DNA of 63,022 nt, the filler included, from Parachlamydiales bacterium (GTDB lineage Bacteria > Chlamydiota > Chlamydiia > Chlamydiales > Parachlamydiaceae): assembly GCA_020051075.1 (NCBI GenBank). It is 4 parts of 4 records of this genome, joined end to end, with 100 filler letters (N's around TTAATTAATTAA, not from the genome) between each part and the next. Parts side by side here need not be neighbours in the genome. Positions count along the whole stretch, not along the records: positions 21,885 to 48,559 come from JAGVJP010000093.1; 3 more parts are not named here. One strand, 5' to 3'. Under the pieces are notes generated by a model. That model searched no databases, was not told where the DNA came from, and saw only the letters and a list, made by a program, of their open reading frames with translations. Below are positions 25,508 to 29,112 of this stretch, one piece after another. How positions within the stretch are numbered: position 1 is the stretch's first letter; each line of letters opens with the position of its first letter. Made by a program: the position numbers and the translations under genes.

Positions 25508-25590
25508 CCTGTTTTGTCCCTTTTGCTTATCCTGTTTTGTCCCTTTTGCTTATCCTGTTTTTTTATTTGTGACGATCCTGCCTATCTTGA
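25325..25590. repeat. Palindromic element family B overlapping the hydrolase 5' end
   Basis: CAGGATAAGCAAAAGG...CAGGATCGCTTGGCGGCAAGATAGGCAGGAT and its inverted arm. Confidence 0.85.
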
Positions 25591-26472
25591 TTCAGTCAGC
25601 CATCCTGCACAGGCCCATTCTTGCAGCCACTTTTGCATGTGCTTCAATGTTTGTTTATAAATTTTCTCATCTTGCTTCTCAATAAACTCACAAGCAGCCG
25701 ATAGGGTTGCACCTTCTTTAAATTGATTGAGAAGGAGGTATTCAGGCCTGCTGATTTTCCGGAAAGAGATTCCATTTTTCTTATTTCTAAATAAGGCGAT
25801 ATAAAAATCTTTTCGTTTTTTTAATTTAGGAAAAGGGTGCTCTGTCCAATAATTGACCTCATGTAGAAGAAAGGCATTTCTAAAATCCATCAAGTCATAG
25901 TCCCATTGAAAAAGATAGATGTAAGGCTGTAAGTAATACGTTAAGTTTAATATCGCTTCGGGGTCCCGTTGGCTGACATCAGCTAAATCGAGTGGAGGGG
26001 CTTCAAGGATGGTGTAGCCCTCAGAAAAAGCCCAATCCAAGCATGCAGAGTGATAGATCAACGCTTGATCTGGATGTTGATAAGATTCGGAGATCCATAG
26101 CGGCAGCTTTTCTCCAATCAGGGCGATGGACCAGTGGCTAGGGGGATGTGCGAGAAGAAAGGGAATGCCTATCTGCTCATTGAAAAAATGGAAGCCGCAT
26201 AACCGGGTCACCAACGGGAAGCTGACCTGTAATGCATTGAGCAAACGCCACCAGTATTGCTGGTTATAGATTTGTATTCTCTCATGCGGCTTGAGCGTTG
26301 GACCCGATGTAAGATATTTTGCTGTTTCTTCAGCGACGCACATCCCCTCTTGGGAATGGGACTGAATCTGATTATTTTCATCTAAAGGATAAGTGATGAT
26401 TTTTGCAAACCACTCCTGAGTTCCCAACATGGTATAGGGGATGAGTTCTTCATAGATTGTTTGTTCATTCAT
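25582..26472 (-). CDS. DUF2063-type MNIO partner protein (HvfC/BufC-like)
   Basis: ERIQIYNQQYWWRLLNALQVSFP...FLLAHPPSHWSI...GEKLP...LDWA; ATG overlaps the DUF692 stop (ATGA). Confidence 0.85.
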   Translation of the reverse strand: MNEQTIYEELIPYTMLGTQEWFAKIITYPLDENNQIQSHSQEGMCVAEETAKYLTSGPTLKPHERIQIYNQQYWWRLLNALQVSFPLVTRLCGFHFFNEQIGIPFLLAHPPSHWSIALIGEKLPLWISESYQHPDQALIYHSACLDWAFSEGYTILEAPPLDLADVSQRDPEAILNLTYYLQPYIYLFQWDYDLMDFRNAFLLHEVNYWTEHPFPKLKKRKDFYIALFRNKKNGISFRKISRPEYLLLNQFKEGATLSAACEFIEKQDEKIYKQTLKHMQKWLQEWACAGWLTESR

Positions 26473-27350
26473 AATGGACCTGATAGTGAAGAAGATGTAG
26501 AACATGTTGATAGGGAATGTTTCTCATGGATTCCTTGCTGGAATTGCTTAGCTTTTAGAGCTTCTTTCCAGGTATCCTCGAACGAAAGGAAATTGGCGTC
26601 CCATTCCAGCAGTGTTGAAACCCCTCCCGTTAATGGATAGACTTCAGCGTATAGATCCCAGACTTCATCTCGAACAGGATGGTCATGGGTGTCAAGGACG
26701 TAAGTGCCCTGGTCGAGATGTCCTGCAAGATGGATTTGAATGACCCGCTCCATGGGGATATTTTGATAGTATGTTTTGGGATCAAACCCATGGTTTCGGC
26801 TAGAGACATAGATGTTATTGACGTCGAGCATCATATAAATATCGGCTTTCTCTACAACTTCTGAATAGAAATCCCACTCAGCCATTTCATCTTGTTTGAA
26901 AGCAACATAGGAAGAGAGATTTTCTAATGCAAAAGGGACTTCTAAGTAGTCTTGTACGATCCGAGCCCTTTCTGAGACATAGTTGATCACTTCCCGGGTA
27001 TAGGGCAATGGAAGCAAATCATGGTAATAGGCGCCTGGTTGATGGCCCCAGCAGAGGTGATCGGATAGCCATTTTGTTTTGGTTTTCCTTGTCAGTGCTT
27101 TGAGTTTATCTAAATAATCAAAGTCCAGGGGGGCTGGGCTGCCAATGGATAAGGAGACTCCATGTTGGATGACTGGATAGCGTTCAACGATCCAGTTTAA
27201 CATCTCGAGCTGTCTCCCTCCTTCGAGCATGTAGTTTTCGCTGATAATCTCAAACCAGTCAATCGCTGGTTCTAAACGAACGATATCATCATAATGCTGA
27301 TCTCTCAAACCGATGCCGATGCCTAGGTTGGGAATGGGTTTTTTTGTCAT
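26469..27350 (-). CDS. DUF692 multinuclear non-heme iron oxidase (MNIO; HvfB/BufB/MbnB/TglH family)
   Basis: GIGLR, FEIISENY, QHGVSLS, SDHLCW, ALENLSSY, LDVNN, HLAGH, DTHD, LLEWD all intact. Confidence 0.96.
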   Translation of the reverse strand: MTKKPIPNLGIGIGLRDQHYDDIVRLEPAIDWFEIISENYMLEGGRQLEMLNWIVERYPVIQHGVSLSIGSPAPLDFDYLDKLKALTRKTKTKWLSDHLCWGHQPGAYYHDLLPLPYTREVINYVSERARIVQDYLEVPFALENLSSYVAFKQDEMAEWDFYSEVVEKADIYMMLDVNNIYVSSRNHGFDPKTYYQNIPMERVIQIHLAGHLDQGTYVLDTHDHPVRDEVWDLYAEVYPLTGGVSTLLEWDANFLSFEDTWKEALKAKQFQQGIHEKHSLSTCSTSSSLSGPL

Positions 27351-27380
27351 GTTCGACCTGCGAGTTAGAAGTCTTTAGCT

Positions 27381-27408
27381 GCCCTGTGCCAAGCTTAAGG
27401 CACAGGGC
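27381..27408. promoter_or_regulatory. GC-rich intergenic stem-loop upstream of the MNIO gene
   Basis: GCCCTGTGCC-N8-GGCACAGGGC perfect 10-bp stem. Confidence 0.65.
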
Positions 27409-27448
27409 TTGAGAGATATCAGATAGGCAATATTAATTGCAATATAAA

Positions 27449-28351
27449 CTAGCGATTGATAATCCCAAAACGGTCGTTCATTCGACGTTGGGCTTCTTTA
27501 ATAGCTAAATTTTTATCTTTGTAAGAATCTTCGCTTGCTAGCTGAATCGCAAGGGCTTTTCCTTCTGGATCCAAACTCAAATACATTGCTCTTCCCTGAG
27601 GATTTAATGCCCCTAGAAGCTGCGCTTCATTCATTGTTTGCGATGAGTTGACTGTTGTCGCTACTGCACGGTTATAGTCATAATCGTTGACGGTGTTGTA
27701 TTGCCGGTTTAAATTCGCGTTGTTGTCCAGGTTCCTTCTCATCTGAGAGTTCGGACCAGGGTTGCTAGGATAGGAATCGATATAGGTCGGTGTGGTATCT
27801 CCGCCGCCGCGATTCACGTTATAGCTGTTATAATAAGAAGAAGAACGAGCAGCATTTGTTGGGCCGCGGCCTTCAGCGATAGGGCTATTTCGATCAGCTT
27901 GATTAGGCTGTCTAGCACCATAAGCTGATTTCCCCTCATCATCAGGTACACCCGGTTTTTTTGGTGTTTCAACAGGTTTTTGATGCGAAGGCAGAATTTG
28001 TTGGGATTCTTCATCTGTTGTAAAGTAGTAGTAGCGCCCTTTTGAGTCTACTGTACTCGATTTTGTTTCCTCAGATGGATGAGATGGCCCTTTTGATGAT
28101 TCTGTCGGTTTATCGCTCTTTTTCATCTCATAGGCGTTGTGTTTTGCATTGTATGGACTGTCCTGATTAGGAGAGTTATCGGCGATTTCTTCTCTGGGTG
28201 ATAGAGAGGCGCATTTCGCTCCGCACCCTCTTGCGAGGAAAATCCCTGGCTGCGCATCGAATTCAGCAGCAGCTTCGATAGCTGTTGGAGAAGCCGCTGC
28301 GAGCAGGAGGGCTGCCAAAGCTAATTTGGAAAGCTCTTGTTTTTTTGACAT
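27449..28351 (-). CDS. Secreted putative MNIO precursor/accessory protein 2 (ARGCGAKC motif, disordered middle, helical C-terminus)
   Basis: Sec signal MSKKQELSKLALAALLLAAASPTAIEA; only two Cys, in ARGCGAKC; directly upstream of DUF692. Confidence 0.75.
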   Translation of the reverse strand: MSKKQELSKLALAALLLAAASPTAIEAAAEFDAQPGIFLARGCGAKCASLSPREEIADNSPNQDSPYNAKHNAYEMKKSDKPTESSKGPSHPSEETKSSTVDSKGRYYYFTTDEESQQILPSHQKPVETPKKPGVPDDEGKSAYGARQPNQADRNSPIAEGRGPTNAARSSSYYNSYNVNRGGGDTTPTYIDSYPSNPGPNSQMRRNLDNNANLNRQYNTVNDYDYNRAVATTVNSSQTMNEAQLLGALNPQGRAMYLSLDPEGKALAIQLASEDSYKDKNLAIKEAQRRMNDRFGIINR

Positions 28352-28436
28352 ATTTTTCTACCTTTTTAGAGAGCCTTGTAAACCGGCATCTCAATGCAGG
28401 GTTACAGCGGCTAGTTAAGATGAGTAAAATTAAAAT

Positions 28437-28470
28437 AAGCTATACCGTCATAGAGATGGCGGTATAGCTT
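28437..28470 (-). terminator. Rho-independent terminator after precursor 1
   Basis: AAGCTATACCGTCAT-AGAG-ATGGCGGTATAGCTT followed on minus strand by ATTTTAATTTT. Confidence 0.7.
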
Positions 28471-28482
28471 GACTATCAGCGA

Positions 28483-29112
28483 TTAATCACGGCTGTTTGG
28501 TTGGATGCGATATGTTCCTCGTGGAGTTTCTGGATATCCTCCATTAGGTCCTGGGCCTGTCGTTGTTCCTTGGTAGGTCGATGTCGTGCCTTGATTTTGC
28601 ATTTGGTTTTGCTGTCTATGTCTTTGTATCATTTGATCCCGAGAAGGAGCATTTGTATGCATCATATCGTCATTAGGATTGGCAGCTCCGCAGCCAGCTG
28701 ATGGACGAGGTTGGTTGTAAGGTTGAGCTCCGCAACCGGCTGATGGACGAGGTTGGTTGTAAGGTTGAGCTCCGCAACCAGCTGATGGACGAGGTTGGTT
28801 GTTGGATTGAGCTCCGCAACCGGCTGATGGACGAGTCGTGTTATAGGTTTGAGCTCCGCAACCAGATTTAGGTGTATTTGGCGTTGTTGGCGCGCCAGGT
28901 GTTTGATTTGGCAATCTTGGACCGTTTTGAGAAGGTGTCTGCTCTGGAGCAGCACCGCATCCGCCTCTAGCTGAAGAAGCGCCGCACCCACCTCTTGCTG
29001 AATGCACATCTTTCATGTCTAAATTGGAAGCGGCTTCCGCTGTCATTGGCAATGATGAGGCTAATAACAATGCTGCTATTGCTTTTGCTGCTAAAATTTT
29101 TTTCTTATTCAT
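28483..29112 (-). CDS. Secreted putative MNIO RiPP precursor 1 with seven GCGA motifs (209 aa)
   Basis: SD GGAGGG then MNKKKILAAKAIAALLLASSLPMTAEA; 2x ARGGCGA, KSGCGA, 4x RPSAGCGA. Confidence 0.85.
   Translation of the reverse strand: MNKKKILAAKAIAALLLASSLPMTAEAASNLDMKDVHSARGGCGASSARGGCGAAPEQTPSQNGPRLPNQTPGAPTTPNTPKSGCGAQTYNTTRPSAGCGAQSNNQPRPSAGCGAQPYNQPRPSAGCGAQPYNQPRPSAGCGAANPNDDMMHTNAPSRDQMIQRHRQQNQMQNQGTTSTYQGTTTGPGPNGGYPETPRGTYRIQPNSRD
28684..28863 (-). repeat. 42-bp coding tandem repeat (GCGAQxxNxxRPSA), about 4.3 units
   Basis: AGCTCCGCA recurs at 28684, 28726, 28768, 28810, 28852. Confidence 0.95.

Follow-up and report, generated by a model that had tools for sequence, protein, structure and literature searches.

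The window analysed here is the whole 63,022-nucleotide stretch of DNA joined from four records of the genome of Parachlamydiales bacterium GCA_020051075.1. Its part derived from contig JAGVJP010000093.1 contains a gene cluster that encodes an oxidase of the MNIO (DUF692) family, a partner protein, and two predicted exported proteins, precursor 1 (P1) and precursor 2 (P2). Four minus-strand open reading frames (ORFs), all intact, are arranged in the order P1 - P2 - MNIO - partner from window coordinate 29112 down to 25582, and the stop codon of the MNIO gene overlaps the start codon of the partner gene as ATGA at 26472-26469. The four co-oriented genes and the overlap were thus found where an initial annotation of this DNA had put them. 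The features of the cluster, all on the minus strand, are listed below (aa, amino acids; RiPP, peptide that is synthesized ribosomally and then modified post-translationally; RRE, RiPP recognition element).

29217..29245, minus strand: probable primary-sigma promoter TAGACA-N17-TATGGT upstream of P1
29112..28483, minus strand: P1, 209 aa, with a predicted Sec signal, seven GCGA cysteines, and a C-terminal GPGPN motif
29112..29032, minus strand: predicted Sec signal of P1, residues 1-27, from hydropathy; probably also the leader read by the partner, judging from HvfA data
28944..29002, minus strand: 27-bp duplication encoding two ARGGCGA units, from repeat analysis
28684..28865, minus strand: 42-bp tandem array, 4.3 copies with 90% matches, encoding RPSAGCGA repeats
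28510..28581, minus strand: Cys-free motif of P1, residues 178-201, S-[ST]-Y-x-G-T-[ST]-T-G-P-G-x3-G-Y-x3-P-x-G-x-Y
28351..27449, minus strand: P2, 300 aa, with a predicted Sec signal, an FLA-RGCGAKCA core, an IADN motif, a low-complexity linker, and C-terminal helices
28208..28240, minus strand: two-Cys core of P2 (Cys43/Cys47), residues 38-48, preceded by a hydrophobic-Ala motif
27452..27643, minus strand: four-helix domain of P2, residues 237-300, with the 32-residue six-Cys Buf2-like core deleted
27350..26469, minus strand: MNIO (DUF692), BufB-type, 293 aa, iron ligands and catalytic Asp251 intact, Ala252 next
26472..25582, minus strand: PME1/BufC-type partner, 296 aa, DUF2063 and a probable RRE, ATGA-coupled to the MNIO

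Searches with hidden Markov models gave 353 bits for the MNIO against PF05114 and 327.1 bits against the BufB model NF050167 (cut-off 310), and 45.8 for the partner against PF09836 (cut-off 27.2). The last two matches were above cut-off, and the three confirm the MNIO and the DUF2063-type partner proposed in the initial annotation. The C-terminus of the partner matched two RRE-type models, both below cut-off (PF22106, E 3.6e-4; NF050145, E 1.5e-4), and the MNIO fell far under the NCBIfam cut-offs for MbnB (35.9 against 325 bits), ChrH (63.9 against 600), and ApyH (95.3 against 400). The metal-ligand motifs are intact, as had been claimed: the MNIO carries H63, H98, E143, D176, N179, H207, H211, D220, H222, E249, and D251, and the ligand residues and Asp251 are the same in all 50 MNIOs that were aligned. 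Among solved structures, 3BWW is the closest (E 7e-48); through it, N179, D220, and H222 align with the site-3 residues of HvfB. A profile search of the contigs revealed one MNIO in the genome; its branch length in a quick tree is ordinary.

Clusters that consist of an MNIO, a PME1 protein, and a Cys precursor are known as captophorins, with more than 20,000 examples; every characterised MNIO-PME1 pair produces 5-thiooxazole and, as a rule, binds Cu (PMC13097082; this and most other publications cited here were available in part, and statements about them refer to those parts). The present cluster resembles captophorins in its enzyme subfamily, its DUF2063/RRE partner, the order precursor-MNIO-partner, and its signal-bearing Cys precursors. 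An intact MNIO, a PME1 partner, and adjacent upstream Cys precursors were all found, and on every genomic criterion the cluster is a member of the captophorin class. Since the MNIO exceeds the BufB cut-off and the partner is of the DUF2063/RRE type, we conclude that this is a captophorin/bufferin-type cluster and not a new system. The earlier proposal of an undescribed system therefore falls, the enzyme being a BufB-type maturase and the class having been described already. Its novelty was also overstated in that published supplementary tables already contain, without assigning them to a category, both MNIO-partner pairs from chlamydiae and the precursors of relatives that have a Buf2 core: the pairs appear in data set S1 of PMC13097082, and uncategorised helix-Buf2 precursors from chlamydiae in data set S2. 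Unlike those of described captophorins, the precursors studied here belong to none of the three groups (DUF2282, Lys-Cys, or Cys-Lys), and searches of the available data sets of PMC13097082 with two Protochlamydia partner accessions and with SAGCG, AHGCG, and LAAGCG returned no chlamydial GCG-type row. Another survey (PMC12452194) reports tandem precursors and many unclassified ones, with signal-bearing precursors collected only below 200 residues; chlamydiae are never named in the part of its text that was available, and a table in it gives five chlamydial genomes with MNIO 1, DUF2063 1, and no known precursor. Literature searches outside subscription journals for MNIO or thiooxazole in chlamydiae returned only the taxon list of the bufferin paper, and DUF692 was not mentioned among the chlamydial papers listed. 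We conclude that the class, and probably the chemistry, is already known, while the GCG-type precursors and two modules described below are probably undescribed.

Both precursors have a basic N-terminus and one hydrophobic stretch at residues ~10-19, with no lipobox Cys; judged from this hydropathy and charge pattern, the Sec signals predicted earlier on both proteins are supported. P1 starts with an ATG preceded by a GGAGGG ribosome site, and the start of a longer frame, from 29199, lacks a signal peptide. The P1 chain is of low complexity and rich in G, P, Q, N, and S. Cysteines occur, as had been noted, only in GCGA(KC) motifs: seven of seven in GCGA in P1, and two in GCGAKCA in P2. Four or five of the P1 sites come from the 42-bp array and two from the 27-bp duplication; by its repeat structure, the array is a recent expansion of the P1 Cys sites. 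No Pfam or NCBIfam family matched P1 or P2, which places these GCGA proteins outside curated families, as the initial annotation had supposed, and Pfam had no family for 12 related precursors.

By its precursors, the cluster belongs to none of Bufferin 1, Bufferin 2, and the EGKCG type. The DUF2282 four-Cys domain of Bufferin 1 had no Pfam or NCBIfam match in P1 or P2. The six- or twelve-Cys core of Bufferin 2 (Caulobacter BufA2B2C2, Buf_6/12Cys; PMC11626156 and PMC12452194) is deleted in P2 and was not found in the genome, but is present at 41 of 71 related loci. The cluster is like Bufferin 2 in having no DoxX or sigma gene, and most chlamydial MNIOs keep the Asp that goes with Cys-Lys precursors; it differs in that the chlamydial core sits inside a four-helix domain, and that here the core is deleted and Asp is replaced by Ala. 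The best functional model for P1, by analogy, is the oxazolin/fontiphorin/gonophorin group, whose precursors are likewise unstructured repeats with many Cys-Gly sites and a signal peptide that probably serves, here too, as the leader. Unlike that group, which combines EGKCG repeats with Phe, P1 has Gly-Cys-Gly-Ala repeats, long spacers, and extra Cys-free modules, and the MNIO has Ala252. The TIGR04222 proteins (PMC12452194) share low-complexity Ser/Gly regions, scattered Cys, and MNIO neighbours, but are multi-pass membrane proteins without a DUF2063 partner, and no TIGR04222 match was obtained with the window proteins. The CxxxxC precursor family (Antoine 2025) is reported, in the part available, from Pseudomonadati only.

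To place the precursors among relatives, 86 loci and the window were collected; six duplicates and three loci without a pattern-found oxidase were dropped, leaving 78, of which 71 had at least 2.5 kb of upstream sequence. The classification was pattern-based, and some short precursors were missed (e.g., at L075). Precursor-like genes were present at 62 of the 71 loci (two or more at 37), so the linkage of such precursors with this MNIO clade is conserved. Forty-one loci had the six-Cys core, ten a coreless helical domain, and ten the GPGPN motif. The helical domain of P2 and the C-terminal motif of P1, both conserved and Cys-free, had escaped the initial annotation.

The helical domain links P2 to Bufferin 2. 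In many relatives, the oxidase is preceded by a gene whose product consists of helices, a six-Cys core, and a further helix; the cores score 38-41 bits against NF050166 (BufA2), under the cut-off of 60. Between the third helix and a DKN motif lie 37-38 residues when the core is present and 6 when it is absent, and hhalign aligned the core-bearing with the coreless domain at a probability of 99.5 and with one clean 32-column gap. The AlphaFold2 model of the coreless domain is predicted to have four helices (predicted local distance difference test score 82). A fold search with the coreless domain revealed nothing clear (best Z 5.4, root-mean-square deviation 3.1, 56 aligned), Foldseek gave no match for the core-bearing domain, and ESM Atlas yielded no usable match for the helical domain. 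The helical-domain profile found 461 representatives; among the best 150 of these, a signal-like start is present in 124 and the core in 30, and 57 of those lacking the core have exactly two Cys. A separate Buf2-core gene is kept in relatives such as L035, L036, L041, and L051, while the window and five other coreless loci have none. Core-bearing, coreless, and leader profiles matched only P1 and P2 in this genome (99.9% complete, 5.7% contaminated), and a profile search revealed no Buf2 core and no stand-alone precursor elsewhere in it. L052 has the RPSAGCG unit as well, on a protein in which the Buf2 core is retained, and this ties the GCGA repeats to the Buf2-core family. These sequence comparisons show that the precursor family descends from a Buf2-like ancestor whose core was lost in the window lineage. 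The helical unit was also seen as tandem Cys-free repeats in a lipoprotein directly before the MNIO (L014:3060-3863) and in four stretches of P0025, and is therefore a mobile module.

The surroundings of the cysteines are far from random. Among the 124 relatives, a small-Cys-small context was found in 96 (shuffle mean 28.6, maximum 40), a hydrophobic-Ala motif before the Cys in 90 (shuffle mean 5.9), and an [IVTL]AD[NK] motif, often located after the Cys, in 28 (shuffle mean 1.4); both motifs resemble the residues on either side of the core in the helical domain. Of 373 Cys in chlamydial segments outside the core, 317 follow G or S and 287 precede G, S, or A, and C-x3/4-C is present in 66 of 124 chlamydial N-cores. 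For FonBC, the residue that follows Cys has to be small, and Ala, Arg, or Thr is tolerated in front of Cys (PMC13097082). The earlier view of the cysteines as the targets thus appears right, and the seven GCG cysteines of P1 together with Cys43 and Cys47 of P2 are candidate modification sites. By analogy with the characterised pairs, thiooxazole formation at the GCG cysteines is very probable. A leader-like pattern was found in 59 of 90 signal-bearing family members and in only 2 of 473 signal-like ORFs of the genome, one of which is P2. HvfA without its signal is barely modified (bioRxiv 10.64898/2026.07.17.739211), and the bufferin signal acts as a leader according to a 2026 paper cited in the same preprint.

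Several related precursors also have many hydrophobic-Ala repeats without a following Cys, e.g., FLASE units (L043:3393-3974, L071:3236-3928, L078:3543-4262, and L050:3770-4873), suggesting that such repeats are processing sites in polyproteins. Inspection by eye revealed a subclade (L016, L017, and L024) with short lipoprotein-like precursors that carry CKG/CTG repeats and lie 3' of the partner or upstream, some with a DoxX-like gene in the cluster, unlike the window. In one genome of the phylum (L086:2842-3273), a divergent MNIO (34% identity) is accompanied by an EGKCG precursor in place of the chlamydial type, probably a separate acquisition.

Loss of the core raises the prospect of decay, in which the MNIO would be left with little true substrate and P1 and P2 would be ordinary unmodified exported repeat proteins. 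The canonical precursor is indeed lost, and the specificity residue and the P1 leader have drifted. However, all ligands and the catalytic base are intact on a branch of ordinary length, the Cys context is strongly selected, Cys repeats were gained recently in P1, and the P1 layout is kept in 12 homologues, all of which end in a near-identical Cys-free stretch. We consider decay very improbable.

The ERDF motif of 3BWW served to map the specificity site. Specificity is set by the residue that follows the catalytic Asp; this residue is Asp with Cys-Lys and Phe with EGKCG precursors (PMC13097082). The site holds D or E at all 41 loci that have a Buf2 core; of the 21 loci lacking one, 5 have a non-acidic residue, including Ala252 here, and one of the five has Phe beside an EGKCG precursor, matching the published rule. 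The association gave a Fisher p of 0.003-0.009, a value that ignores kinship and was not relied on. A complex prediction with the partner, the MNIO, and the coreless helical domain scored 0.00 and was not used for or against binding.

The profile of the C-terminal motif of P1 matches 105 proteins. The pattern was counted in 104 (P0152-P0255; the window's own protein left out) and met by 103, with eleven positions identical in 103 of 103, partly through selection of the set; 19 of the 103 have two or more small-Cys-small sites. Several of the proteins are named Protochlamydia in their source records. The motif usually lies in the first gene of the cluster, often in a Tyr-rich protein with little Cys, and as the domain layout indicates, P1 is a fusion of this motif with GCGA repeats. 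The GPGPN profile gave only a weak 14-residue match to a designed protein in the PDB, and ESM Atlas gave no usable match for the GPGPN protein. Among 73 genomes of the window's family, the motif is present in 16, once each, and in all 16 it shares the strand of the oxidase and lies no more than ~3.2 kb upstream of it.

Such conservation could mean that the Tyr/Gly/Pro motif serves as a core peptide in its own right, whose non-Cys residues are modified by the MNIO or a co-opted enzyme and which is released proteolytically, with the hydrophobic-Ala and IAD[N/K] motifs as processing sites in polyproteins. The invariant positions, the low Cys content of half of the GPGPN proteins (0-1 Cys), the constant place upstream of the MNIO, the excess of [IVTL]AD[NK] motifs over shuffled sequences, and the modification of non-Cys residues by other MNIO subfamilies would fit such a second product. 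Yet the MNIO is 70-81% identical to most chlamydial MNIOs, including those at loci without the GPGPN motif, the cluster has no extra enzyme or protease, and BufB-type enzymes are known only for Cys chemistry (PMC13097082). Since all ten GPGPN loci on the quick tree fall in one clade (Shimodaira-Hasegawa approximate likelihood ratio test 96), the linkage may also be synteny inherited within that clade. We therefore regard a second product as quite improbable.

Transcription of the cluster was approached through its promoter and through published expression data. In about ten relatives, visual inspection of the DNA upstream of either the first or the second precursor gene showed the same -35/-10 arrangement with a 17-18 nt spacer, TAGACA/TATG(G/T)T elements precede the precursors in the window and close relatives, and the strict 17-nt pattern was found only in the window, L051, and L076. 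The total of the promoter/terminator scan was at chance level (10 found versus 8.2 in shuffled sequence). Just after the -10 box, L051, L058, L036, L041, L053, and L033 have an inverted repeat TTCAACA...TGTTGA, an operator or a 5' hairpin; in the window, at around 29200-29180, this repeat is degenerate.

Protochlamydia amoebophila UWE25 has the gene order methyltransferase - pomV - MFS - pc1862-1864 - DUF692 (pc1865) - DUF2063 (pc1866), which matches the window except for an inserted 530-aa gene. P2 is, by layout and position, the orthologue of WP_011176409.1/pc1864, and the consecutive accessions identify pc1862 as the GPGPN protein and pc1864 as the coreless-helix protein. The supplement of PMC5451489 places all three pc1862-1864 genes in class 'late II', to which omcB also belongs; relative to 48 h, their transcripts are 4.9-7.3-fold higher at 96 h and 7.8-8.9-fold higher extracellularly. 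The oxidase gene pc1865 rises 4.5-5.3-fold; pc1866 is classed 'early I', yet rises late too. The pc1863 and pc1864 proteins were detected in the elementary-body proteome (PMC5451489). All three proteins have been listed as predicted outer-membrane proteins without orthologues (PMC2811131); the beta-barrel prediction of Heinz 2009 was rejected for them, because they are of low complexity or helical.

Such timing is what would be expected if the MNIO made thiooxazoles for developmental components of the elementary-body envelope and not for copper sinks, the heterocyclic thiols tethering low-complexity chains into a disulfide-cross-linked envelope with the helical and GPGPN modules mediating assembly. 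Besides the shared temporal class with omcB and the proteome data, the oxidase is near universal and mostly single-copy in the window's family (67 of 73 genomes), the cluster has a fixed place beside MFS and Pom genes, chains carry few Cys, and conservation is higher in the Cys-free modules than in the Cys repeats. On the other hand, the oxidase is present in only 98 of 301 sampled genomes of the phylum and in 0 of 30 genomes of one family with 1.0-1.2 Mb genomes, so that elementary bodies as such do not require it; ancestrally, the cargo was the Buf2-like core of a copper-induced family (PMC11626156), and precursor number and sequence vary freely between loci. We judge this explanation unlikely. 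Also to be taken as tentative is the possibility that the Protochlamydia-like clade turned a bufferin pathway into a developmental envelope system, in which the MNIO arms long, modular exported elementary-body proteins and the GPGPN motif and the emptied four-helix domain are new functional modules, either as a non-Cys modification site or as an assembly/anchoring pair.

The explanation we favour, with moderate confidence and by analogy with characterised systems, is that thiooxazole-bearing periplasmic proteins are loaded into the infectious form for defence against copper and oxidants. The operon would be read from the primary-sigma promoter, probably late in the developmental cycle as in the P. 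amoebophila relative. A cytoplasmic MNIO-partner dimer would recognise the conserved signal peptide as the leader, and Cys in the small-Cys-small context would be oxidised to 5-thiooxazole with a loss of 4 Da each, as in characterised close relatives, giving up to seven thiooxazoles in P1 and one or two in P2. The modified proteins would then be exported by Sec, presumably to the periplasm or the envelope, where the flexible P1 repeats may bind copper or quench oxidants in a loose network, so that the elementary body would be armed before it meets soil, water, or the amoebal phagosome. The lineage has lost the Cys-Lys Buf2 core, expanded the GCGA repeats, and replaced Asp by Ala, a change that may have a functional meaning. 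The emptied helical domain and the GPGPN motif could most likely be unmodified modules for assembly or anchoring.

Several observations weigh against the favoured explanation. Only two Cys are present in the 300 aa of P2, and one in its P. amoebophila orthologue, which is highly expressed; this makes for poor stoichiometry in a copper sponge, and 52 of 103 GPGPN proteins have 0-1 Cys. The published expression data show developmental control in amoebae, and copper is absent from the available main text of PMC5451489. The P1 signal deviates from the family leader pattern, and the BufA1 signal was found to be dispensable in the 2024 bufferin preprint. The link between Asp/Ala and core loss, drawn without phylogenetic control, is suggestive and loose, because 16 of 21 coreless loci keep Asp, including all the closest relatives of the window, and L013 has Ala yet six Cys-Lys/Arg dyads. 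DoxX, often found in such clusters, is unlinked here: neither a DoxX nor an extracytoplasmic function (ECF) sigma gene lies within the cluster, as the initial annotation had stated. DoxX matches were found on two other contigs, and the genome has a single Sigma70_r2 match, with no ECF sigma and no SigF/NrsF-type gene found. The Waddlia MNIO is reported as unchanged under iron chelation (log fold change -0.04). Counting in favour of the copper reading are four to five copper-type P1B ATPase genes above cut-off in this genome (contigs C131, C97, C84, and C36), many for a chlamydial genome, in an assembly that is 5.7% contaminated.

A neighbouring gene encodes a Protochlamydia-type Pom porin; together with the Protochlamydia names of several proteins that share the GPGPN motif, this makes a Protochlamydia-like host probable. 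Between the MFS gene and the cluster, at 29620-31212 on the minus strand, where relatives have no gene, lies the inserted 530-aa gene, which encodes a coiled-coil protein with two hydrophobic stretches and no family match; it may be an inclusion-membrane-like protein. Palindromic intergenic repeats resembling repetitive extragenic palindromic or miniature inverted-repeat transposable elements were found at 25331-25600, near 23870, and at 34032-34268. The family comprises 468 BLAST pieces spread over 71 of 133 contigs, with 121 genomic copies of one 14-mer, and the repeats produce spurious ORF extensions.

The analysis provides a probable function for three Protochlamydia proteins listed so far as outer-membrane proteins without orthologues, and connects the developmental cycle of environmental chlamydiae with a RiPP class that is known as a response to copper stress. 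It also reveals a natural specificity series in one clade, in which the Cys-Lys core is kept or deleted, Gly-Cys-Gly repeats are expanded, and Asp is changed to Ala, and it defines two undescribed modules missed by current profiles. If the pathway did become an envelope system, it would do more than buffer copper and would represent a RiPP pathway whose timing follows the development of an obligate intracellular bacterium.

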